The notes: generated by a model not told the origin, from the letters alone. Numbered from the stretch's first letter, positions 13,202 through 33,955 are shown. The stretch: 64,000 nt of DNA from Deltaproteobacteria bacterium (GCA_029262475.1 JAJCZG010000119.1:3378-67377), one strand, 5' to 3'. Translations and numbers: made by a program.

Positions 13202-13536
13202 AAAAGCCCTAAGGGCTCCGCCCGAGGATCCGGGCGAATGCGAGACGCGCCTGCCTTGCCCGTCTCGTACGGTTACAGACCTTTTCACCGCAGAGCTCGT
13301 CCGTCCACACCGAATAAAAAAGACCTTTTATAGATTAACTCTTTTGACTCCACCGGCGCTTTACGGTTAAAATATAAAACAAAGCGGGGCAAAGGAGGAG
13401 ACGGCGGGCTCGGAGCTACGGATAAAAGATGCCTGGCTGCCGTATATTGCCGAACTAACAGCCCTAATTCATATAGATTAATGACGGCACCCGGGACGAC
13501 AACGGAGTGCCTGGCGGGAAAAAGGATTTACAGTAA

Positions 13537-15636
13537 GTGATAGATTCGCTCTTTAAAAGCGCTCGTTCCATAAAATACTTCGGGGCCGCTGTCGCGTGCT
13601 TCGCGCTCTATACGGTCGTAACTTCTTTTAACGCTCTATCCCCTCTTCAGTGGGGGATAAGCCTTCTCCTTACGGCTGGCGCAGCGGGTATCTACTTCTC
13701 ACTTAACGCGCCGCCACTAAAAGCGTCCCCCGTAAAGACTTCGCTAACGGTCTTCACCTTTTACATCATAGCCGCACTCCTGGTATTTCACCCCACGATG
13801 CACAATATCTTCAGGAGTGATTACTGGCAGATATCTCTCTTATTTAATAGCATTTCGGAGTTGACCGTAGATGCCGCAAAGAGGCTCTCGCTCTTCGAAA
13901 TCTTCGGAGATATGCGCTTTCAGCCCGCCGCGCACCTCCTTATGTACTTCAGAGACCTTGCCTTCGGTAGCGAGGTCTTACTCTTTCATCTCCTTAATAT
14001 CACTCTCCACTCGGTAACCGGCTTTGCCCTATACGGCGCCCTTAACCGTTTCACGCGAGACCGGGCCTTCTCTTTCATATTCGGGCTTCTTTTTATAGTC
14101 CTCCAGAGCCACTTCGACACCGTTGTCTGGACCTATCATATCTATATAATACTCGGCTCCATACTGCTCCTCACCGCCGTTAACCTCACAAAGCGCTACA
14201 TAGACGGTGAGACGGCAGTCTCTATCTACATAGCGGCCCTCCTGTCAATAGTCTCCATCCTCCTCTACGAACCGTCGATAGCCATCCCGCTCCTCCTCTT
14301 TTTAATGGTCGGCGCGGCCTTCTTAACCAAAGATGGAGGGGTAGATAAGAAGCGGCTTATTATTGCCGGAGCCGGAGCCGCAGCAGTATATATTTTATAC
14401 GCAGGTGTTACGCTATTCGGCTTGTCGCTTACAGAAGGGGCACACAAGGTCGTCTCCGGCGGAGACCTCATAACCGTTGATAATATCTTAAAGGGGCTCG
14501 TTGCGCTCTTTAAAAGCCTCTGGCATACCATCTACCTTGAAAACATTGGCATTACGGCGGAGCTAAATATCGTAGAGATAATCTACATTCATCCGCCGGA
14601 AGAGTTAATTACGAGTTTTACTGCTGTAGTCATAATGGCCCTGTCGCTCGCCCTCTTCTCGCTCATGCGCGCAGACAAGAAGAACCGCTACTTCGCCCTA
14701 CTGCTGATACTTATTGGAATCTCCTACTTTTCGGTAATAGCGCTTGGAAGGGTCCACTCCAATTCGATAAGGTACGTTACCTCCCAGTCCCGTTACTTCT
14801 ACTTCCCGAACGCGGCCATCCTGCTCGCCTCAGGCATTCTCCTCTACCGGAAATACGGTGAGCAAAGCGCAAGGTGGATAATACTCATAATACTAACGGC
14901 CATCTTCTTCTGGAATACCTCGAATACCCAGATGGCGAATAACGCCGTCGATAGGAATATGCGCTTCCTGGACGCCCCCCACTACGAGCTAAAGGCATTT
15001 ACGGCCTCCAACCCTCAGGCGAAAGTATTTATCGACTACATCCCCTTTAACGAGGGGCGCCTCTTCCTCGGCTCCGATATTGCTCTGGAGATAATGCACA
15101 GAGGAGCGGTCACCAGGTATAAACGCCTTGCGACGCATATCTACGACGAGCGCGGTCTAAGGAAGAACCCATCCTACATGGCGGGCGCAGTACCTTCTCC
15201 GACACTCGGCGATTTTACCGTCAAGTGGACATTCCGCTTCTTCAAGCAGGCCGAGTCGTGGAAGGATATAGTCGTCATCGGCTCAGAGAATAATTACCCG
15301 CGCATTACGACCACCCTCGACGGGGTCATAAAACTTGCTCTCGTTAACGTCGAAACCGGCGCTGTAGAGGAGTTAAGCTTCCACCCGTCATACTTGCTAA
15401 AGGGCTATAACGACTGGTTCGAAGTTACCCTTGTAAAAGAAGGGGACGTTATCTGCCTCAAATACTTTGACATGATTAGCGATTCGGTGACCCTTACGTC
15501 GGAGTACGTGAACTGGCGTGCGGACGGCACGGAGCTCCTTGGCCCGCACTACTACGGAAAGGGCGCATCCTCTTACATTGCCGACCTCTTCCTGATGCTC
15601 GACGAAGCCAGGGGCGGGTGCGGAAAGCTCAAATAA
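13537..15636 (+). CDS. GT-C fold membrane glycosyltransferase, TMTC/PMT_2 (DUF1736)-like, paralog 1. It has an unassigned ~300-aa C-terminal domain and uses a GTG start.
   Basis: A multi-pass N-terminal domain carries RSDYW...RFQPAAHLL...FHLLNITLHSV...LFIVLQSHFDTVVWTY. These are collinear with the TMTC blocks DFWG...SYRPLT...YHLLNMIFHA...LFAVHPIHTEAVTGV. Compare the paralogs at 15654 and 31144. Confidence 0.6.
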   Translation: MIDSLFKSARSIKYFGAAVACFALYTVVTSFNALSPLQWGISLLLTAGAAGIYFSLNAPPLKASPVKTSLTVFTFYIIAALLVFHPTMHNIFRSDYWQISLLFNSISELTVDAAKRLSLFEIFGDMRFQPAAHLLMYFRDLAFGSEVLLFHLLNITLHSVTGFALYGALNRFTRDRAFSFIFGLLFIVLQSHFDTVVWTYHIYIILGSILLLTAVNLTKRYIDGETAVSIYIAALLSIVSILLYEPSIAIPLLLFLMVGAAFLTKDGGVDKKRLIIAGAGAAAVYILYAGVTLFGLSLTEGAHKVVSGGDLITVDNILKGLVALFKSLWHTIYLENIGITAELNIVEIIYIHPPEELITSFTAVVIMALSLALFSLMRADKKNRYFALLLILIGISYFSVIALGRVHSNSIRYVTSQSRYFYFPNAAILLASGILLYRKYGEQSARWIILIILTAIFFWNTSNTQMANNAVDRNMRFLDAPHYELKAFTASNPQAKVFIDYIPFNEGRLFLGSDIALEIMHRGAVTRYKRLATHIYDERGLRKNPSYMAGAVPSPTLGDFTVKWTFRFFKQAESWKDIVVIGSENNYPRITTTLDGVIKLALVNVETGAVEELSFHPSYLLKGYNDWFEVTLVKEGDVICLKYFDMISDSVTLTSEYVNWRADGTELLGPHYYGKGASSYIADLFLMLDEARGGCGKLK

Positions 15637-15653
15637 GCGTAGCGAGAGATTAA

Positions 15654-17759
15654 TTGAATAAAGACTATACAAATGCGATTCGCTTCACCGCGCCGGTAGG
15701 AGCTATATTTGCCATCACAGTCGCCTATACGACGTGGAGCTCGCTAAACTCGCTGCCGCCTTATCAGTGGGCTCTGGCATTCGCGCTACTAATAATTGCT
15801 CTTACGGCGCTCTTCTTTATGGAGAAGGGTCTACTAACCGCGAGGAGAGCGGCAGGCGTAACCGTCATCATCTACGCTCTCGTCGCATTTACGGCCTTTC
15901 ACTCCACAACCGGCAATATTTTCAGGAGCGACTACTGGCTAATCGCCGAGCTCTTCAACTCCTTCGACCAGGTAACCATCGATACGCTCAGGAGGATCTC
16001 TCTCTTTGAAATAATGGGCGACCCGAGGTTCCAACCTCTTGCCCACCTACTGATGTATTTACGGTTTCTCGTCTTTAAATTCAACCCGCTGGCCTTTCAT
16101 ACGCTCAATATCGCGCTCCACACTCTAACGGCCTTTCTTATTTACCTTATCGTTAAGGAGTTCACAGCCGAAAAGGGACTGGCCTTCATAACGGGGCTCA
16201 TCTTCATAGTGCTCCAGAGCCAATTCGATACCGTCGTCTGGACCTATCATATATATATTATTACCGGCGGAGCACTCCTCTTCGCCGCCATCCTCCTTGC
16301 CAGGAGATACTCAGTCACAGGAGAGAGGGCGTATTTCATATATGCGGTTCTATTCTCTCTCGCCTCGCTCCTCCTCTACGAACCGGCGGTAGCCGGGCCC
16401 GCCGCCGTAGCAGGCATAGTTTTATTTAACTGGCGACGCGACGGGCAAGCGGCGCCCCGGCGGACCATTTACTCTACTGCTCTAATCGCAATTGCCGCTT
16501 ACATCGCTTATATGTTGGTTACACTCTTCGGCACCTCTCTTACGACTACAAGCCACAAGATGGGCATGGGAGAGCTCACTACCTTATCAAATATTGGCCT
16601 TGCCGTTAAGGCGCTCTTCGTTAACTTATGGCAGAGCTCTTTTATCATAAATACCGGCATGACGGCTACGCTCGACCTCTCCGATATCGTTTACATACGG
16701 ATGCCTGAGGATATATTTACCACGATAAATATCATAAAGCTCATACCGGTCGTCTTTCTTGCGGCATCACTAAGGGCGGTAAAGGGGACGAGGGCTACCG
16801 CCGCGATAATCGCTACCATCGCCCTCTCCTACCTATTTATAATATCGCTCGGAAGGATGCATTCCAATTCGCTCGAATACTTCATAAGCCAGCCGCGTTA
16901 CCAGTACTTCCCCAATGCCGCGCTCATAATCCTTGTGGCCGTACTCCTGAGCGCAAAGTTTAAGGAGAAGATAAAAAAACCGCTTATCAGTGCCGCCCTC
17001 GCAGCTATCTTCTTCTGGAACCTGCAAAATACCCTTATAGCGAATAACAAGGTCTCAGACGGCATGGAGTTCCTCGACTCACACTATTACAGGATAAAAG
17101 ATTTTACCGCGAATGACCCGTCGAGAAAGCTATATATGAACTTTACTCCCGGCGAAGGTTTGAGGTTTGCACTCGGAGCGGATATCGCCCTCGACCTCAT
17201 GCTAGGCGAGCGCCTCAGCTCATTTCCGAGTAAAGCCACGCATATCTACACAGAGGACGATATCATGGAGAACCCTTTCAGGTCGGGCGGCGGCGTGGAG
17301 GCGGCAGAGCTCGGGAACTTCTTTGTCTCGTGGACATACCTTCCGGTCTACAAATTAACTCCGCAAGATGACGTGGAAGTGCTTGGGGGTAAGCACGGAG
17401 GGGCGCGTATATCCATTACCAACACCGGAGAAGTTAACTTCAGGGCAGTAAGGGCCGATACCGGTACTACCGATACTATTACACTAAAAAACCCTTATTT
17501 TGCCTCCTCGTACGCTTCACCGGAGGGCAAAAAAACACTCAAACATATGGCCGTCGTAAAGGACGGTAACGAGATTTGCCTTTACTTTAATAATAGACTT
17601 GCCGATAAAAAGATATTACACTATCCATATAAGAACTGGAGAGTGGACGGAAGCGAGCTCTTCGGAAGCCACTACTCAGGGAGTGGCGGTGCGGCCTACG
17701 TCCTCCGGCTCTTTAAACAGTTGGACTCCTCAGACTACTCATGCTCCAGCGAATCGTAG
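15654..17759 (+). CDS. GT-C fold membrane glycosyltransferase, TMTC/PMT_2 (DUF1736)-like, paralog 2. It is a tandem duplicate of the upstream gene.
   Basis: RSDYWLIAELFNSFDQ...RFQPLAHLL...FHTLNIALHTL...IFIVLQSQFDTVVWTYHIYII. It is collinear with paralog 1 along the whole length, including the C-terminal domain (…KNWRVDGSELFGSHY… against …VNWRADGTELLGPHY…). Confidence 0.6.
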   Translation: MNKDYTNAIRFTAPVGAIFAITVAYTTWSSLNSLPPYQWALAFALLIIALTALFFMEKGLLTARRAAGVTVIIYALVAFTAFHSTTGNIFRSDYWLIAELFNSFDQVTIDTLRRISLFEIMGDPRFQPLAHLLMYLRFLVFKFNPLAFHTLNIALHTLTAFLIYLIVKEFTAEKGLAFITGLIFIVLQSQFDTVVWTYHIYIITGGALLFAAILLARRYSVTGERAYFIYAVLFSLASLLLYEPAVAGPAAVAGIVLFNWRRDGQAAPRRTIYSTALIAIAAYIAYMLVTLFGTSLTTTSHKMGMGELTTLSNIGLAVKALFVNLWQSSFIINTGMTATLDLSDIVYIRMPEDIFTTINIIKLIPVVFLAASLRAVKGTRATAAIIATIALSYLFIISLGRMHSNSLEYFISQPRYQYFPNAALIILVAVLLSAKFKEKIKKPLISAALAAIFFWNLQNTLIANNKVSDGMEFLDSHYYRIKDFTANDPSRKLYMNFTPGEGLRFALGADIALDLMLGERLSSFPSKATHIYTEDDIMENPFRSGGGVEAAELGNFFVSWTYLPVYKLTPQDDVEVLGGKHGGARISITNTGEVNFRAVRADTGTTDTITLKNPYFASSYASPEGKKTLKHMAVVKDGNEICLYFNNRLADKKILHYPYKNWRVDGSELFGSHYSGSGGAAYVLRLFKQLDSSDYSCSSES

Positions 17760-17826: not shown

Positions 17827-18606
17827 ATGATACGCAAAGCCCTGCCAATCTTCTTATTCTTCTTACTCGTAACGCTTATGGCGGCCCTCGCACCTTCCTC
17901 GCAAGCCTTTACCGGTGCCGGGTGCGCTGAAGACTGCACAAGCTGTCATACCCTTGATATAGACGAGGCGAATAAACTCCTTAAAACCGAGAAGTTCGGC
18001 GCAAAGGTGACCGGCGTCAAGATGAGCCCCATTAAGGGTCTATGGGATGTGACCATCGAGAAGAACGGTAAAGAGATGGCTGCCTACGTCGACTTCGCAA
18101 AGCAATTCCTCGTCGAAGGGCGTTTCACACCGCTTGAGAATATTGGAAAGCAGCCGGAAGCGAAGAAACTTGATACATCAACAATACCCCTTGCCGACGC
18201 CGTGGTGATGGGCGACCCGAATGCTGCGCTTAAGGTCATCGTATTCGACGACCCGGATTGCCCGTACTGTAAAAAACTTCACAACGAGATAAAGACGATC
18301 ATTTCAAAAAGAAAGGATATCGCCTTCTACATCAAACTCTACCCGCTCGCCATGCACCCGGCGGCATATGCTAAGAGCAAGGCGATAGTCTGCGAAAGGT
18401 CCGTTAAACTCCTCGACGACGCCTTTAACGGCGTAGAGCTCCCGAAGCCTGAGTGCGATACCGACGATGTGGACAAGACCATAACGCTCGCTAAAAGCCT
18501 CGGCATTAACGGCACCCCCGGCATAGTGCTCCCGAACGGAACCCTCATACCCGGTTATGTAGTGGCTGATACGCTCATAAAAATGATAGACGAAAATACA
18601 AAATAA
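17827..18606 (+). CDS. Periplasmic thiol:disulfide interchange protein, DsbC/DsbG-like
   Basis: A signal peptide is followed by a DsbC-type N-terminal dimerisation region and a thioredoxin fold with DDPDCPYCKKLH (CPYC active site). There is an extra N-terminal GCAEDCTSCH motif. Confidence 0.7.
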   Translation: MIRKALPIFLFFLLVTLMAALAPSSQAFTGAGCAEDCTSCHTLDIDEANKLLKTEKFGAKVTGVKMSPIKGLWDVTIEKNGKEMAAYVDFAKQFLVEGRFTPLENIGKQPEAKKLDTSTIPLADAVVMGDPNAALKVIVFDDPDCPYCKKLHNEIKTIISKRKDIAFYIKLYPLAMHPAAYAKSKAIVCERSVKLLDDAFNGVELPKPECDTDDVDKTITLAKSLGINGTPGIVLPNGTLIPGYVVADTLIKMIDENTK

Positions 18607-18644: not shown

Positions 18645-18686
18645 CCATTGCCGGGTAGATGCTTCTACCCGGTAAAGGCTTTTTTG
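18645..18686 (+). terminator. Rho-independent terminator of the dsbC-like gene
   Basis: The hairpin ccgggtag-atgctt-ctacccgg is followed by taaaggc and then TTTTTT. Confidence 0.5.
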
Positions 18687-18916: not shown

Positions 18917-21406
18917 CTACTCTTTAGCGCTCTTATCCTCTTTCATATAGAATTTTTTCAGGTTAAATCTGGCGTTGACGTGCTCGGGATCAATCTTCAG
19001 GGCTTCTTTATATGACTTCTCCGCCTCTTTCGTTCTGCCTACCTTTTCATAGAGGATACCGAGGTTATTTAAGGCATAGGCATGTTTCGGGTCGGAACGC
19101 AGAGCCTCCTTGTATGCCTGCTCAGCCTCGGTAAGCAGGCCCATCTTGCCGTATATAATACCCTGGTTATAATAGCCGTTGGCGTAGTCCGGGTCAAGCT
19201 TCAGGGCCTCTTTATAAACATCGACGGCCGAGCGGTGCTCGCCCATCTTGCTGTAGAGATTTCCGAGGTTATTGTAGGTATAGGCATAGCCGGAGTCGAG
19301 CTTTATCGACCTCTTATAGGCCCTCTCAGCCAATTTGAACTTACCTGTCTTGGAGTATAGGTTGCCGAGGTAGTAATAAGGCCACGAGAAGTCAGGGTCG
19401 AGTTCGCTGGCCTTATTGTACTGTTCTATGGCCATCTCACTCTTCTTCATATCGTCGTAGATGGTGCCTAGCCTCAGTGTAAGTGTGGCCTTGACCTTCT
19501 TGTCGTCATGGTCCAGCGCGAGACCCTGAAAGACGTCTTCAAGCGCCTGGTGGAAGTTCTTACCCCTCCAGGCATCGGTTGAGAGAACAAGATAGTCCTC
19601 CGGAGCCCTGAGCTTCGCGTTTCTAAGCTCCGCCTCCTGAACCAGCTCAACGAGGGCCCTTGCGTCCTTCTCCGATGGTTTGTCCTGCGCCGCGCTCAGG
19701 GCAAGCGCCCTCTTCTCAGAGGTAAATGGAATGTAGGTCGGGTCAGTATTTTTGACGTAAAACCTATCCCTTAGATAGGGCTTTGCCACCAGGCCCGCTA
19801 CAGCGAGGATGCACACTATCAAGAGATAAAATATCACTGAGTGGGCCCACTCGCTTCCCTTCTTCTTCGTTGAAACGCTGCTGGGGGCCGGAGCGATATG
19901 GATCCTGCTGTCCATCCTTGAAGGGGCCTTTGGAGGGACGTACGCTCCCGGAGTCGACGGCAGGATTATGCATCGAGCCTCTCCTCGGTTCATCCTGCTT
20001 GATGGCGCCGCCTTGTTAACGGGCGGGGCCATCCACGAAGCGGTCTTCCTTGTGGTAGTCGTAACGGAACTTACCGATGGAGATACGGCGGGGGTATTGT
20101 CTTTAGACGGAGGGGTGCCGGGAGAAGAGACGGCAGGGGCAACATCAATACCTGAAGCTTCTCTTTTAACAGCGACCTTTGCGCTAATGGGCGTTACTCC
20201 TGCGCCATTGCCGCCAGGCTCCACGGAGAGCGCATCCCGTCTACCCTTCTTCTTTGTATAGAGAAAATCCTCTGGAAACCCGGCGCTATCCGTCCCTTCG
20301 AGCGTCTCTTCACCCTCCATTTCAGGCATATCGGACGAATCCAGTTCGTGGAGGTAAGGCACCCTGTGTTCGGCAAAATAAGGCTCTTTAGGCTCAGGGG
20401 CTTCCTTTGCCGCCAGAGCGCTATTTTCTTTGATACCCCTGCTGGAATGCTCTTCCGCTTCAAAGCCTTGTGACTTTTCATCACTTGTCGAGATTCTCCT
20501 CTTCCTCTCGGAGGCGGGGAATTTTTCAATATTTATCACAACGGCATCAGACTTCCAGGCTTTATCATCGGCATCTACGGCAGCCTCTGTAGTCACAGAC
20601 TCATCTTTGCGCCCAGATGAGCCCCCCGTGACATCTTCGGCGGCAGAGGAGGCTAGTACCACCGCAGGTGGTATGATCTCAACTTTACCGGCAGGGAACT
20701 CTTCAATCTTGATTGGAGATCTTTGCTCCGCCGTGGCGGCTTCTCCCGGAGCCTTTAAAGAAGGACGCGAGTGCGCGCACTCATCTTCACTAGCAAGAAC
20801 GGCAGGAAATTTCTCTATATTTATTATACTAGAAGCAAAGCTTTTTACGGAATCAGACCTCTCCGACTCTTCTTCATTCGAAGCGGTTGGCGTTTCTTTC
20901 CCGGTGGAGCGAAATTCTTCTATTACTATCGGCTGGCGCTTAGTGCTCATCACTGAAACCTCGTTGTCGTTATAATCCGCTACCGACTCTTCACGAGCCT
21001 CTCCGGCCTCCTCGGCAGCAGCGTCTTCGATAAGACCTGCTTCGGGAGCCTTCAGCTCCTCGCACTCATCAACTTCACCCGGGAGCCCTACCTCTGCAAT
21101 GATAATGGCGCTCGGGTCCGGGACTTCGATTGGCGAGGCTACCTGGAGATTCTCACTAGCTCCGGACTCAGCCATATCCTCTGTATTAGACGTCTCTGCA
21201 AGTGCACTATCTGGTGCAGCGGATATGGGGGCTTGAGCATTCTCCATAAGCTCATCAGAGAGCACGATAGCGTTATCCCACCTTCCTGCATAACCGCATC
21301 TCAGGCAATACATTACATTTCTGGCGATATTAATTCGCAGATGTGCGCCGGTGTCCGGAGCCATACCGGTATCCTGACAATAAGGACAATTACACTGTTT
21401 ATCCAT
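18917..21406 (-). CDS. Zinc-ribbon / TPR-repeat membrane protein of 829 aa. Layout: cytoplasmic CxxC...CxxC N-terminus, an acidic low-complexity linker with four I(N/E)IE(K/E)F(P/R) motifs, one transmembrane helix, then a C-terminal TPR array.
   Basis: The N-terminus reads MDKQCNCPYCQDTGM...YCLRCGYAG. Four motifs occur: QPIVIEEFRS, SIINIEKFPA, SPIKIEEFPA, AVVINIEKFPA. The transmembrane helix is SVIFYLLIVCILAVAGLVA. At least six TPR units follow, for example AYTYNNLGNLYSKMGEHRSAVDVYKEALKLDP. Confidence 0.7.
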   Translation of the reverse strand: MDKQCNCPYCQDTGMAPDTGAHLRINIARNVMYCLRCGYAGRWDNAIVLSDELMENAQAPISAAPDSALAETSNTEDMAESGASENLQVASPIEVPDPSAIIIAEVGLPGEVDECEELKAPEAGLIEDAAAEEAGEAREESVADYNDNEVSVMSTKRQPIVIEEFRSTGKETPTASNEEESERSDSVKSFASSIINIEKFPAVLASEDECAHSRPSLKAPGEAATAEQRSPIKIEEFPAGKVEIIPPAVVLASSAAEDVTGGSSGRKDESVTTEAAVDADDKAWKSDAVVINIEKFPASERKRRISTSDEKSQGFEAEEHSSRGIKENSALAAKEAPEPKEPYFAEHRVPYLHELDSSDMPEMEGEETLEGTDSAGFPEDFLYTKKKGRRDALSVEPGGNGAGVTPISAKVAVKREASGIDVAPAVSSPGTPPSKDNTPAVSPSVSSVTTTTRKTASWMAPPVNKAAPSSRMNRGEARCIILPSTPGAYVPPKAPSRMDSRIHIAPAPSSVSTKKKGSEWAHSVIFYLLIVCILAVAGLVAKPYLRDRFYVKNTDPTYIPFTSEKRALALSAAQDKPSEKDARALVELVQEAELRNAKLRAPEDYLVLSTDAWRGKNFHQALEDVFQGLALDHDDKKVKATLTLRLGTIYDDMKKSEMAIEQYNKASELDPDFSWPYYYLGNLYSKTGKFKLAERAYKRSIKLDSGYAYTYNNLGNLYSKMGEHRSAVDVYKEALKLDPDYANGYYNQGIIYGKMGLLTEAEQAYKEALRSDPKHAYALNNLGILYEKVGRTKEAEKSYKEALKIDPEHVNARFNLKKFYMKEDKSAKE

Positions 21407-22030: not shown

Positions 22031-22105
22031 TGGAGCCGGAGGGGAGAGTCGAACTCCCGACCAACTGATTACGAATCAGTTGCTCTACCCCTGAGCTACT
22101 CCGGC
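22031..22105 (-). tRNA. tRNA-Thr (anticodon CGU)
   Basis: The minus-strand sequence GCCGGAGTAGCTCAGGGGTAGAGCAACTGATTCGTAATCAGTTGGTCGGGAGTTCGACTCTCCCCTCCGGCTCCA folds into a cloverleaf. It has a 7-bp acceptor stem, a D arm GCTC/GAGC, an anticodon loop TTCGTAA (CGT) and a T arm GGGAG-TTCGACT-CTCCC. The CCA end is encoded. Confidence 0.9.
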
Positions 22106-31143: not shown

Positions 31144-32550
31144 TTATCGCCTAAAGCTACTTGCCCCGTTCTCCCCCCGGCGATCAAGTGAGGTGAATAT
31201 CCTCTCCGAGAGAGTAACGATGGCAAGCACACCCACCACGAAGAACCCGAGGGAGGCGAGATAAAGCCTGTGCTCGAAGATAACGTCTATGATCGGTATA
31301 AAGCTCGAAGTAGGTGATAATGTTATGAAAAACCAGAATATAAAAAATGACGCTACTGCCCCTGTCCCCCGGACGCCGCCAGAAAGCTTGCTGCTTTCGG
31401 CCTCGCCTGTGGCAGGCCCAACGGAGTGGCGAGCGAGGTAAAAGGCCGCGCACAAGATCAACGCCAGTATAAGAAGAGAGACCACGGACGGGGGCTGAGG
31501 GTAATTCAGCACGGTGCCTCCCTTTACCTTCGGGGCCTTGAAGAGTGAGGTTGAAACCGGGAAATCATAATCGATATTCTGGTTAACCGGAACCGCAAGG
31601 AGCGTTATATAATACGTCAGCACGTTTAACTGTGTGTACATATACTCGCTCGGGCTCAGTCCCTTCACGTTAAAACCGGCGCTCTCCCACGACTCCCTTG
31701 GAGCGACACCTTCCGAGGAGACGACCCCGGCGGCGGCTGAGAGACCATCCGAGCCGATGGCTCCGTCACTGAGGTCGCCAAAACCGCCTAGCGGGATGAT
31801 AGTAGAGACGGCGAAGTAGATGAGGAGCGTTAGGAGCAGGGCGTAGAAGGGCGCTCTCTTAACGAGCCCTCTTAGCCCAAAACCACTAAGGAAGTAATAG
31901 TCGTAGAGTATGATAAGGGCTGGGAGCGTAATGGCTATCTCCTTGGAGTAAAAGGCCATTACATAAGTAAATAATACGCCGAAGTAGAGGAGTATCTTCG
32001 ATTGCAGCCGCTTTACTCCGTCGGCGAAGATAAAGAGGAGCAGCGCCAGGAGGCAAAATAATGCGCTAAGGCTCTCCATGCGCTGCACTATATAGGTAAC
32101 CGACTGCGTTTGAACCGGATGAAGGGCGAAGAGGAGCGCGGAGAAAAATGCAACGGCCCTTACCCTCGGCACGGGCCAAGAGAGGCGCGTAAATGTAGCG
32201 GCAAGCACAAAGTACGAGAGTATGGAGCTTATTATGTGTATAAGGGTATTAACCAGATGAAACCCGGTAACGTCTAGCCCGGAGGCCAGGTAATTTAGGG
32301 CGAATGTATGAAAGGTTACGCCGCGTAGCTCCTGAAAGAGTATATACGGCAAGTAGGTGAGGTTCCTTATGCGCGGGTTTCCCGCAATCTGCCTGAAGTC
32401 GTCTAAGTGAAAGGCCGAGGTAAAGGTATTGGAATAGACTACGATAACCGAGGCGCATATGATGGCGGCGGCTACAACGGGAAACAGTCTCGCTGAGAAG
32501 AAGCTACGCATCTCTTCCCTTCTTATCGCTATCTGACACCGCGCTTCCAC
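31144..32550 (-). CDS. GT-C fold membrane glycosyltransferase, TMTC/PMT_2 (DUF1736)-like, with no extra C-terminal domain
   Basis: FHLDDFRQIAGNPRIRN...FHLVNTLIHIISS...ALLFALHPVQTQSVTYIVQR is collinear with the TMTC/PMT_2 motif blocks. The protein is 468 aa and entirely polytopic. Confidence 0.6.
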   Translation of the reverse strand: MEARCQIAIRREEMRSFFSARLFPVVAAAIICASVIVVYSNTFTSAFHLDDFRQIAGNPRIRNLTYLPYILFQELRGVTFHTFALNYLASGLDVTGFHLVNTLIHIISSILSYFVLAATFTRLSWPVPRVRAVAFFSALLFALHPVQTQSVTYIVQRMESLSALFCLLALLLFIFADGVKRLQSKILLYFGVLFTYVMAFYSKEIAITLPALIILYDYYFLSGFGLRGLVKRAPFYALLLTLLIYFAVSTIIPLGGFGDLSDGAIGSDGLSAAAGVVSSEGVAPRESWESAGFNVKGLSPSEYMYTQLNVLTYYITLLAVPVNQNIDYDFPVSTSLFKAPKVKGGTVLNYPQPPSVVSLLILALILCAAFYLARHSVGPATGEAESSKLSGGVRGTGAVASFFIFWFFITLSPTSSFIPIIDVIFEHRLYLASLGFFVVGVLAIVTLSERIFTSLDRRGENGASSFRR

Positions 32551-33175
32551 CAGACGGCTTGGCGCTTCTATTGGACGGCTTACCTGCTGCCCTGCCGGAA
32601 GATTTATTTAATCTCCCGGCGGACGGCCTGGCGCTTCCACCGGACGGCCCGGACTTAGGAGCTCTACCCTTAGCCGAAGGGGATGGCTCACTACTACTAC
32701 CACTACCTGCTTCGTCCGGCTTTGAGGCGGCCTTACCTCTATAGCCGCCTCCTCTTCCTACCCTTCCGGAGCTACTCCTTCCAGTCGGCTTGGCCCCGGA
32801 CGTTCTTCTATCCCTGCCCTTCACCTCACCCGGCTTCCCGTCTCTTGCAAGCTTCTCCTTTAAGAGAGAGAGCTCCTGGGTAAGGACCTTATTCTTGTCA
32901 TAGAGGATGGAGATTACGACAGAGAAGTGAAGGAGTATCAGGATAACGAATATAAAGGCTACCAGGAAGAGCAGCGAGGGGGCGTATGAGACGCCGACCA
33001 TCCCTGCAATCCTGTCCAGAAGGCCGCGCCAGAGCGACAAGATGATAACGACTACGGAGAGCGCGAGCCAGAGGACGGAGTACTTCTCCTTTAGAAGATT
33101 TCGCCTTACGAAGTCCACTACCACTGCGAATAAGAAGACGCTCGCAAGTATGGAAATAATTTGAACGGTATTCAT
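32504..33175 (-). CDS. DUF2304-family small membrane protein with a ~110-aa Gly/Ser/Arg/Lys/Pro-rich C-terminal tail
   Basis: The N-terminal ~110 aa form 3-4 transmembrane helices (…ISILASVFLFAVVVDFVRRNLL…), as in DUF2304 proteins found beside GtrB-like GT2 genes. The tail reads …GRSSSGRVGRGGGYRGKAASKPDEAGSGS…. Confidence 0.55.
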   Translation of the reverse strand: MNTVQIISILASVFLFAVVVDFVRRNLLKEKYSVLWLALSVVVIILSLWRGLLDRIAGMVGVSYAPSLLFLVAFIFVILILLHFSVVISILYDKNKVLTQELSLLKEKLARDGKPGEVKGRDRRTSGAKPTGRSSSGRVGRGGGYRGKAASKPDEAGSGSSSEPSPSAKGRAPKSGPSGGSARPSAGRLNKSSGRAAGKPSNRSAKPSGGSAVSDSDKKGRDA

Positions 33176-33241: not shown

Positions 33242-33955
33242 CTACTTGTCGGGCCTCCTAAGGAGGTCGACGAAGATGGCGAATAGGACTTTTAGCATAT
33301 AATAGACAGACCACATGGGGGTAATAGAGCTGCTCCCCCCCTTTCTGCCGGTCATCTTAACGGGCACTTCCATTATGCGGAAACCCTTCTTGTGGAGCAT
33401 AACGAGCACCTCGACCTCCGGGTAATCCTCCGGGTAATTCGTGCAATAATACTCTATCACACGCCTCCCGACGGCCCTGAAGCCTGATGTCGTATCCGTA
33501 AGGCGCTCCTTAATGATAAAAGAGACGACCCTTGAAAATATCGCAATACCCGCCCCGCGTGGTATCGACGGCCTGTAGTCCCCGGTCCCCAGGAAGCGTG
33601 AGCCGACGACGACGTCCGCCTCGCCTCTAACGACAGGGGCGACGATCTCTCTAATCTGAATGGCCGGGTGTTGACCGTCGCCGTCCACCTGCACGGCTAT
33701 ATCGTAGCCGTTATCGCGCGCGTATTTATACCCGGTCTGAACGGCGCCGCCTATTCCGAGGTTATAGGCGAGGGTAAGTACCTTCGCACCGCGAGAAGTG
33801 GCAATTTTACCGGTCTCATCCGAGGAGCCGTCGTCTATAACGACAATATCGCCTTCGGGGAAGCCGTCCCTGACCGAATCTATTACAGCTCCGATGGTCG
33901 CCTCTTCCTGAAATGCAGGTACTATAATCAGTGTTTTAGGGATTTTGGGGCTCAT
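33242..33955 (-). CDS. GT2 polyprenyl-phosphate sugar synthase (GtrB / DPM1-like)
   Basis: A 237-aa protein. LIIVPAFQEEATIGAVIDSV...IVVIDDGSSDETG... and ...VQVDGDGQH... are the GT-A DxD/DXDD signature of dolichyl/undecaprenyl-phosphate hexose synthases. Confidence 0.8.
   Translation of the reverse strand: MSPKIPKTLIIVPAFQEEATIGAVIDSVRDGFPEGDIVVIDDGSSDETGKIATSRGAKVLTLAYNLGIGGAVQTGYKYARDNGYDIAVQVDGDGQHPAIQIREIVAPVVRGEADVVVGSRFLGTGDYRPSIPRGAGIAIFSRVVSFIIKERLTDTTSGFRAVGRRVIEYYCTNYPEDYPEVEVLVMLHKKGFRIMEVPVKMTGRKGGSSSITPMWSVYYMLKVLFAIFVDLLRRPDK

Follow-up and report, generated by a model that had tools for sequence, protein, structure and literature searches.

A tandem pair of predicted GT-C transferases with ConA-like periplasmic domains in uncultured Deltaproteobacteria

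What does a cell do with two neighbouring copies of a large membrane protein, each ending in a soluble domain of its own? The question arises at two genes, here called geneA and geneB, in a Deltaproteobacteria bacterium; the window that we analysed is the whole stretch GCA_029262475.1 JAJCZG010000119.1:3378-67377, of 64,000 nucleotides. A first-pass annotation, made from the sequence alone, had described the products as a tandem pair of TMTC/PMT_2-like glycosyltransferases. We think it fairly probable, with real room for doubt, that they are periplasm-facing GT-C transferases that would use a polyprenyl-phosphate-sugar donor, recognize the acceptor through a ConA-like domain, and serve as extra members of a three-component system. 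It builds on the paralogy of the two genes, their modelled fold, indicators of topology, conserved residues, purifying selection and genomic linkage, from which we infer the catalytic residues, the donor, the acceptor and a division of labour.

The two open reading frames (ORFs) occupy 13537-17759 exactly as first annotated, with 17 nt from the geneA stop codon to the geneB start (Table 1). Their products align end to end at 40% identity over 682 residues (E 3e-151), far above chance, which bears out the description as tandem duplicates. All the motifs that had been listed for them were found, namely FRSDYW, RFQP(A/L)AHLL, LNI(T/A)LH, FIVLQS(H/Q)FDTVVWTYHIYII and NWR(A/V)DG(T/S)EL.

Fold, topology and conserved residues of the membrane domain

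A full-length AlphaFold2 model of the geneA product, built from 21 family members (pLDDT 86.8, pTM 0.88), contains 13 long, hydrophobic helices in the part that reaches to about residue 466; helix runs on to about 491, and a beta-rich domain follows. In a Foldseek search of the PDB, for which 50 matches were listed with the full-length model, the membrane part matched AglB (3wak and 7e9s, E ~7e-5), PglB (5ogl and 6gxc, E ~3e-4), STT3 (6ftg_5) and DPY19 (7zlh, E 1.2e-3). Scores for this domain were modest, the PglB match having a TMq of 0.35 as normalized over the full 699 residues. Among the 50 matches listed there was no non-GT-C fold for the membrane domain, nor any Pmt1 or Pmt2 chain. As modelled, the membrane domain is a polytopic GT-C fold, and to that extent the nature first ascribed to it holds.

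The 13 transmembrane (TM) helices most likely comprise two extra helices at the N-terminus and a GT-C core of 11; the chain would begin in the cytoplasm and end in the periplasm. Taking the model helices as TM segments, we counted lysine plus arginine in the short loops: 20 of 70 cytoplasmic vs. 3 of 40 periplasmic residues for geneA, and 21 of 68 vs. 2 of 40 for geneB. These counts place the N-terminus inside, and loop 1 (residues 88-146, with three short helices in the model), the loop at 300-360 and the C-terminal domain outside. In long relatives (1,229-1,339 aa), a signal peptide is followed by a soluble stretch, a true Laminin_G_3 domain (E down to 2.6e-20), a single TM helix, and then TM1 with the FRSD motif; this order places the motif in the periplasm. 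Both computational lines thus indicate a periplasmic position for loop 1 and the accessory domain, and together with a covarying cysteine pair (below) they agree with the location first proposed for the C-terminal domain.

An acidic residue that opens a long, helix-containing first outer loop is a hallmark of GT-C enzymes. In this family the conserved acidic residue is at position 95 (numbering of the geneA product), where it opens the long first extracytoplasmic loop; all 28 members carry D or E there, and R93 and W97 on either side are invariant. The other invariant or nearly invariant polar residues are R127-F-Q-P130, N154, H158, D194, W198, H201, Y244-E245, N336, G404-R405, Q417, R419 and N425. 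These residues, like those of the loop 1 motif, lie at periplasmic helix ends or in loops, and all are kept in both geneA and geneB. From this pattern, D95 is a candidate catalytic acid/base, and R405 and R419 may bind phosphate.

The C-terminal domain and the wider family

The C-terminal domain had been put at about 300 aa and called beta-rich, unassignable and possibly lectin-like. The soluble region is shorter, about 233 aa (residues 467-699), and the beta-sandwich proper spans about 556-690. A domain-only AlphaFold2 model (pLDDT 83.5) gave 165 PDB matches at E<=1e-3, the best being the HCN domain of botulinum neurotoxin (BoNT; E 5e-7, TMq 0.45-0.50); the 50 listed were all receptor-binding chains of clostridial toxins. 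With the full-length model, too, the C-terminal part matched the chains through which clostridial neurotoxins bind their receptors; the 140-180 columns aligned we take to be the lectin-like HCN subdomain. It also matched the NEL protein, presumably through a LamG/TSPN domain. Profile evidence was fainter: Laminin_G_3 (PF13385) scored below threshold in 4 of 16 family domains (best E ~1e-3), with no match for geneA and E 0.047 for geneB (14.3 bits, short of the Pfam gathering score of 27.6), and hhalign of the domain against a true Laminin_G_3 segment gave 2.9%. By its modelled fold, then, the domain is a ConA-like jelly roll claimed by no curated family; the earlier view of it as unassignable, to be refuted by a match to a well-known domain, stands for families and falls for the fold, and the guess that it is lectin-like finds support in the Foldseek matches.

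Two cysteines of the jelly roll, Cys640 and Cys695, occur together in 23 sequences, are both missing from 5, and occur singly in none, the pattern expected of a disulfide. The loss falls in one groundwater clade (L012, L014, L015, P0009 and P0011), all other members keeping both cysteines, and this is the clade directly linked to the GT2-DUF2304 genes described below. The long relatives mentioned above (P0052, P0053, P0056 and P0058) have a soluble region of about 350 aa between the N-terminal signal peptide and the genuine Laminin_G_3 domain that precedes the GT-C core, giving each two periplasmic ConA-like domains. We considered whether these relatives might be fused tandem copies, a Rosetta stone for a geneA-geneB complex, and rejected the idea on finding that their N-terminal halves have no second membrane core.

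The two-domain family is small, with 23 matches in 5.8 billion clustered proteins, none bearing a name or a Pfam domain, and 10 loci among 185,579 species representatives. Its hosts are all Deltaproteobacteria/Thermodesulfobacteriota metagenome-assembled genomes (MAGs), except for one contig (L011, JAJFGF010000036.1) binned as Marinicaulis sp., an alphaproteobacterium. That contig has the order dapA-dapB-member-member typical of the Deltaproteobacteria MAGs, and its assignment is probably a binning error.

The membrane domain by itself is far more widespread. An exhaustive profile search reached 5,604 representatives of clusters at 50% identity (E<=1e-3), of which about 55 have the full architecture and the others the membrane domain only; hhalign joined the two-domain family to this large one at 100% (E 6.5e-62). 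No Pfam or NCBIfam model covers the membrane domain of these distant relatives. At their C-termini, 7 of 44 have TPR repeats and 5 of 44 have F5/8 type C (discoidin) domains; in the others no module could be detected. They often occur in tandem arrays within glycan-biosynthesis loci, for example three consecutive members at L020 (3804-8608) and two among four consecutive Pfam-less ORFs at L022 (1419-8599), arrays that adjoin genes for epimerases, GT1/GT4 and WecA-like enzymes, and PMT_2+TPR proteins. We tentatively suggest, with somewhat less than even confidence, that the pair is the tip of a large, undescribed GT-C family of at least 5,600 clusters, unrepresented in Pfam, NCBIfam and the PDB and often in tandem arrays, with interchangeable periplasmic acceptor modules (ConA-like, TPR or discoidin), a bacterial counterpart of TMTC logic. 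If so, the C-terminal module would set the target, a new CAZy family would be merited, and geneA and geneB could work on distinct acceptors or as a heterodimer resembling Pmt1/Pmt2.

The pair is kept in two other MAGs, L009 (699 and 703 aa) and L011. In a neighbour-joining tree without bootstrap support, geneA fell together with the first of the two L011 genes, and geneB with an unlinked second copy (L016) in the MAG OFTM14. Because the two group with different copies in other MAGs, the duplication appears to be old; a recent local duplication was rejected on the same tree, where geneA and geneB are not sisters, and on the presence of both types in other MAGs. The dN/dS ratios against the L009 orthologs (0.21 for geneA and 0.19 for geneB, low in both domains) indicate that both genes are under purifying selection. 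Between the paralogs, identity is 50% in TM1 and loop 1 and 31% in the jelly roll, which retains 83-85% between orthologs; this pattern of divergence fits two active enzymes with diverged acceptor-binding modules.

A linked lipid-sugar synthase module and the competing readings

Elsewhere in the window are three adjacent genes for a GT2 enzyme, a DUF2304 protein and a further GT-C protein (Table 1), the last of which the first-pass annotation had counted with the pair as a third TMTC-like paralog. The GT2 product has its best NCBIfam match to PpgS (E 4.5e-30), followed by AglJ and a dolichyl-phosphate-hexose transferase, all below their cutoffs, and its best PDB match to the dolichyl-phosphate mannose synthase DPMS (5mlz, E 3.7e-11); it is likely, on these similarities, to make a lipid-linked donor. 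The DUF2304 proteins GacJ and Rv3632 bind and stimulate the polyprenyl-phosphate-N-acetylhexosamine (HexNAc) synthases GacI and PpgS (bioRxiv 10.1101/180810). What these synthases make is then used, outside the membrane, by a GT-C enzyme (10.1101/180810). The DUF2304 ORF of the window, at 223 aa, has an unusual tail of about 115 aa rich in Lys, Gly, Ser, Pro and Arg that is missing from the 125-aa L002 homolog; if the GT-C gene downstream is read at its longest, the two ORFs overlap.

The link between this module and the family, which had been suggested at the outset, is direct in other genomes. In five species (L012, L013=L002, L014, L015 and L017) the gene order is GT2, DUF2304, GT-C of the type found at 31144, family member, ANTAR and thiH; that is, the member lies directly downstream of the three module genes and upstream of an ANTAR regulator and thiH. 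In the window, unlike this direct adjacency, the GT2 gene is 13 kb from the pair, joined to it by a syntenic block of about 20 kb (window 12395-33955; also L013 and L015) containing dapB, dsbC, GGDEF, thiC-thiE-lgt-thiG-thiH, ANTAR, GT-C, DUF2304 and GT2. Here the member lies between dapB and dsbC, at the other extreme of the block, and is duplicated (in the window, L009 and L011); these opposite positions relative to the groundwater MAGs point to relocation of the ConA-domain gene within the block. We take these gene orders to indicate that a polyprenyl-phosphate sugar synthase, one component of a three-component system, is linked to the family.

Other neighbourhoods have a similar character. 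The 866-aa members lie in a cluster with GT2, flanking LPG_synthase_TM, NTP-transferase, dehydratase/epimerase, dTDP-sugar isomerase, methyltransferase and acetyltransferase genes. At L003 (10169-12460) the place of geneB is taken by an unrelated protein of 763 aa that weakly matches YfhO, itself a GT-C protein, which suggests that GT-C cassettes can replace one another at the site between the family member and dsbC; that the 763-aa protein might be a diverged paralog of the pair was rejected (hhalign 0.4%). No flippase gene (GtrA, Wzx, MATE or SMR; GacK/Wzx-type) was found in the immediate operons, no systematic search of the window having been made.

The strongest competitor is the view of the first-pass annotation, that geneA and geneB are protein O-mannosyltransferases of TMTC/PMT type (GT39/GT105-like), using polyprenyl-phosphate-mannose on periplasmic proteins, with the ConA-like domain in the place of TPR or MIR. 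That annotation had called the N-terminal domain DUF1736/PMT_2-type, to be refuted if such profiles were not retrieved, and at the sequence level they were not. Neither the full proteins nor their separate halves had a significant match to any Pfam or NCBIfam model, with faint matches only to TgpA_N, ORMDL and Laminin_G_3; PMT_2 (PF13231), DUF1736 (PF08409) and all GT-C models gave nothing at E<=1 for the proteins or either half, and when the family profile was set against a true PMT_2 protein, hhalign returned a probability of 0.2%. TPR repeats had no match in the C-terminal regions, modelled instead as the alpha/beta subdomain and jelly roll, and PDB sequences searched with the profiles A1, A3 and A4 (that of the pair's family included) yielded nothing meaningful. 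Membership of the pair in PMT_2, DUF1736 or TMTC is thus not supported.

What speaks for such enzymes is a connection through the gene at 31144. Its product had no direct Pfam match, and its family (A4; more than 3,300 homologs of about 430 aa) has a hidden Markov model (HMM) that matches PMT_2+TPR proteins strongly (E 1.5e-73 and 2e-79), which makes the 31144 gene PMT_2/TMTC-like. By hhalign, A4 matches the pair's family at 95% (E 3.5e-8), with FRSD aligned on an invariant FDD of A4. This homology, seen only when profile is compared with profile, is limited to the first ~210 columns, in the N-terminal half only, and the 31144 gene is a distant relative of the pair, at superfamily level only, and no paralog within one family; the earlier count of three TMTC-like proteins is right for this one and overstated for the pair. 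The TPR modules of some distant relatives, and a family member that adjoins an A4-TPR fusion at L004, also favour O-mannosylation. Against it, the structural matches listed are oligosaccharyltransferases (OSTs) and DPY19 rather than Pmt1 or Pmt2, and the linked GT2 is nearest to a HexNAc-phosphate-polyprenol synthase (PpgS), not specifically to a mannose synthase. Overall we regard O-mannosyltransferase function as unlikely.

Nor do we give much credence to the pair being no glycosyltransferases at all but other polytopic envelope proteins, for instance a transporter, a polymerase or ligase like Wzy or WaaL, or a scaffold whose lectin-like domain serves only for binding. The lack of any sequence match to a characterized family (the faint TgpA_N match apart), a single Wzy_C_2 match among 44 distant relatives and the modest Foldseek scores would suit such a protein. 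Yet it would leave unexplained the acidic residue of loop 1, the invariant Arg, Asp, Glu and His at periplasmic helix ends, the repeated occurrence of the family within glycan or lipid-sugar synthase clusters, and a membrane domain whose listed matches include no other fold. Least likely is an OST-like pair (PglB/AglB/PglL-like) that would transfer a glycan en bloc from undecaprenyl-pyrophosphate to a protein or other acceptor, a role to which the best structural matches of the membrane domain (AglB, PglB and STT3) and one distant relative with a faint NCBIfam archaeo_STT3 match (E 5.5e-4) would point, but against which stand the lack of a WWDYG-type motif on reading the two translations, a jelly roll unlike the OST-type periplasmic domain, and a conserved genomic partner, monophosphate-sugar synthase plus GacJ-like activator, that supplies monosaccharide donors.

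We thus favour periplasm-facing transferases fed by a lipid-linked monosaccharide. The GacI/PpgS-like GT2 and its GacJ-like DUF2304 partner (window 32.5-34.0 kb) would make a polyprenyl-monophosphate sugar on the cytoplasmic face, which would then be flipped across the membrane. R93, D/E95 and W97 of loop 1, together with R127-F-Q-P, D194...H201, Y244-E245, G404-R405 and R419, would form the donor-phosphate and catalytic site facing the periplasm, and the disulfide-stabilized ConA-like/LamG beta-sandwich after the last helix would recognize the acceptor in the manner of the carbohydrate-binding modules (CBMs) found in Emb, AftD and GT136 enzymes. The pair would act as extra periplasmic transferases of a Gtr/Gac-type system, decorating envelope glycans or proteins. 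For a lipid-phosphate-linked sugar donor the evidence is indirect, namely the operon linkage to a polyprenyl-phosphate sugar synthase in five species. Because the jelly roll is the most diverged part between geneA and geneB, it is probable that each has its own acceptor or site of action.

Table 1. Features of the window at and around the gene pair and the linked lipid-sugar synthase module
Feature	Coordinates	Strand	Description
Leader dapB-geneA	13202..13536	+	335 nt, intergenic; dapB ends 13201
Sigma-70-like site in leader	13344-13373	+	TTGACT-18-TAAAAT
Ribosome-binding site in leader	13522-13526	+	AAGGA
geneA	13537..15636	+	GTG start, 699 aa; 13 TM helices, GT-C fold and periplasmic C-terminal ConA-like domain (all as modelled)
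geneA motif F92-R93-S94-D95-Y96-W97	13810..13827	+	start of predicted first periplasmic loop
geneA periplasmic C-terminal region	14935..15633	+	residues 467-699: helix extension, small alpha/beta subdomain, predicted ConA-like/LamG jelly roll ~556-690
geneB	15654..17759	+	TTG start, 701 aa; architecture as geneA
geneB motif F90-R91-S92-D93-Y94-W95	15921..15938	+	counterpart of geneA residues 92-97, by alignment
DsbC/DsbG-like periplasmic thiol:disulfide isomerase	17827..18606	+	Pfam Thioredoxin_2 (E 1.6e-19) and DsbC_N
Intrinsic-terminator-like hairpin	18648..18675	+	strong 12-bp stem, then T run; end of likely geneA-geneB-dsbC unit
PMT_2/TMTC-like GT-C without TPR repeats	31144..32550	-	cognate GT-C of GT2-DUF2304 operon
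DUF2304 (GacJ/Rv3632-like) small membrane activator of GT2	32504..33175	-	Pfam DUF2304 (E 3.8e-24), residues 3-106
GT2 polyprenyl-phosphate sugar synthase (GacI/PpgS/DPMS-like)	33242..33955	-	Pfam Glycos_transf_2 (E 9e-22)

The GTG start of geneA, first noted together with the leader, is well placed: the gap after dapB is real, an in-frame TAA and the AAGGA box precede the GTG, and an 83%-identical ortholog shares the start residue. The sigma-70-like site in the leader is only suggestive as a promoter, since promoter-like sites in this region do not exceed the shuffled expectation; a riboswitch was sought there by Rfam scan and rejected, with no match at E<=1. It is likely that geneA, geneB and dsbC form one transcription unit with dsbC last, the dsbC product matching NCBIfam DsbC at E 2e-20, below the cutoff. 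A functional tie of this DsbC-like neighbour to the cysteine pair was considered and set aside, because the dapB-dsbC adjacency is ancestral and the gene pair was inserted between them in the window lineage only. A gene convergent with the unit (18917-21406, minus strand; 65% identity in L009) encodes a protein of 829 aa. This has a Cys-rich motif resembling a zinc ribbon at the N-terminus (CNCPYCQ...CLRCGY), a long acidic middle part of low complexity, a single TM helix and, at the C-terminus, five or more TPR repeats, and it might serve the TPR-less GT-C protein at 31144 as a separately encoded TPR partner. A tRNA gene (22034-22105, minus strand; Rfam RF00005, 70 bits) lies in a low-GC stretch (GC 0.44) between the TPR and GGDEF genes.

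Comparison with known glycosylation systems

GT-C enzymes build and decorate envelopes (lipopolysaccharide, arabinogalactan, teichoic acids, glycoproteins). Further families of them continue to be defined one by one, as was GT136 in 2024. Here a sizeable GT-C-like membrane family has been missed by all curated profile libraries, and its swappable periplasmic modules may offer a simple route to predicting acceptor class. For the ConA-like subfamily there is a tie to a module of GacI/GacJ type, a type that is understood from experiment; this gives a testable donor-supply hypothesis for uncultured relatives of sulfate reducers and, for Pfam and CAZy curators, a starting alignment. The advance is incremental, at the level of the catalogue and without a new principle; the kind of system is already well known, and what is new is this version of it, a duplicated pair, each with its own lectin-like domain.

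Of solved structures, AglB, PglB, STT3 and DPY19 match the membrane domain best, at 10-13% sequence identity. The pair differs from the OSTs in lacking their type of periplasmic domain and WWDYG-type motif, and its likely donor is a monophosphate monosaccharide, not a pyrophosphate oligosaccharide. With TMTC1-4 and bacterial PMT_2+TPR proteins (PF13231, PF08409) it has in common the GT-C superfamily, a distant TM1-TM6 homology traced via A4 with the acidic loop 1 motif aligned, and, in some distant relatives, the C-terminal TPR; it departs from them in having no HMM-level membership, a jelly roll instead of TPR, and two additional TM helices at the N-terminus.

GT136 ORF12 of Citrobacter youngae, EmbA/B/C and AftD combine a GT-C core with a periplasmic binding module after the last TM helix, TM11 (PMC11127046). 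Like the pair they have a periplasmic beta-sandwich in this position, and they act within three-component systems (PMC11127046). The module of the pair is instead a predicted ConA-like/LamG jelly roll nearest to the HCN subdomain of clostridial neurotoxins, and in the literature searched we found no described GT-C enzyme with such a module.

The closest parallel is side-chain glycosylation by GacI/GacJ/GacL in Streptococcus pyogenes and PpgS/Rv3632/Rv3779 in M. tuberculosis, where there is likewise a GT2 with a small DUF2304 membrane partner; when gacL is deleted, GlcNAc-P-Und builds up. The logic would be alike, a cytoplasmic lipid-sugar synthase feeding a periplasm-facing GT-C, and in five related species the GT-C genes are directly downstream; the likeness lies in the GT2, the DUF2304 protein and the gene order. 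The hosts differ, being Gram-negative-type Thermodesulfobacteriota MAGs, as does the complement of 2-3 GT-C genes per genome.

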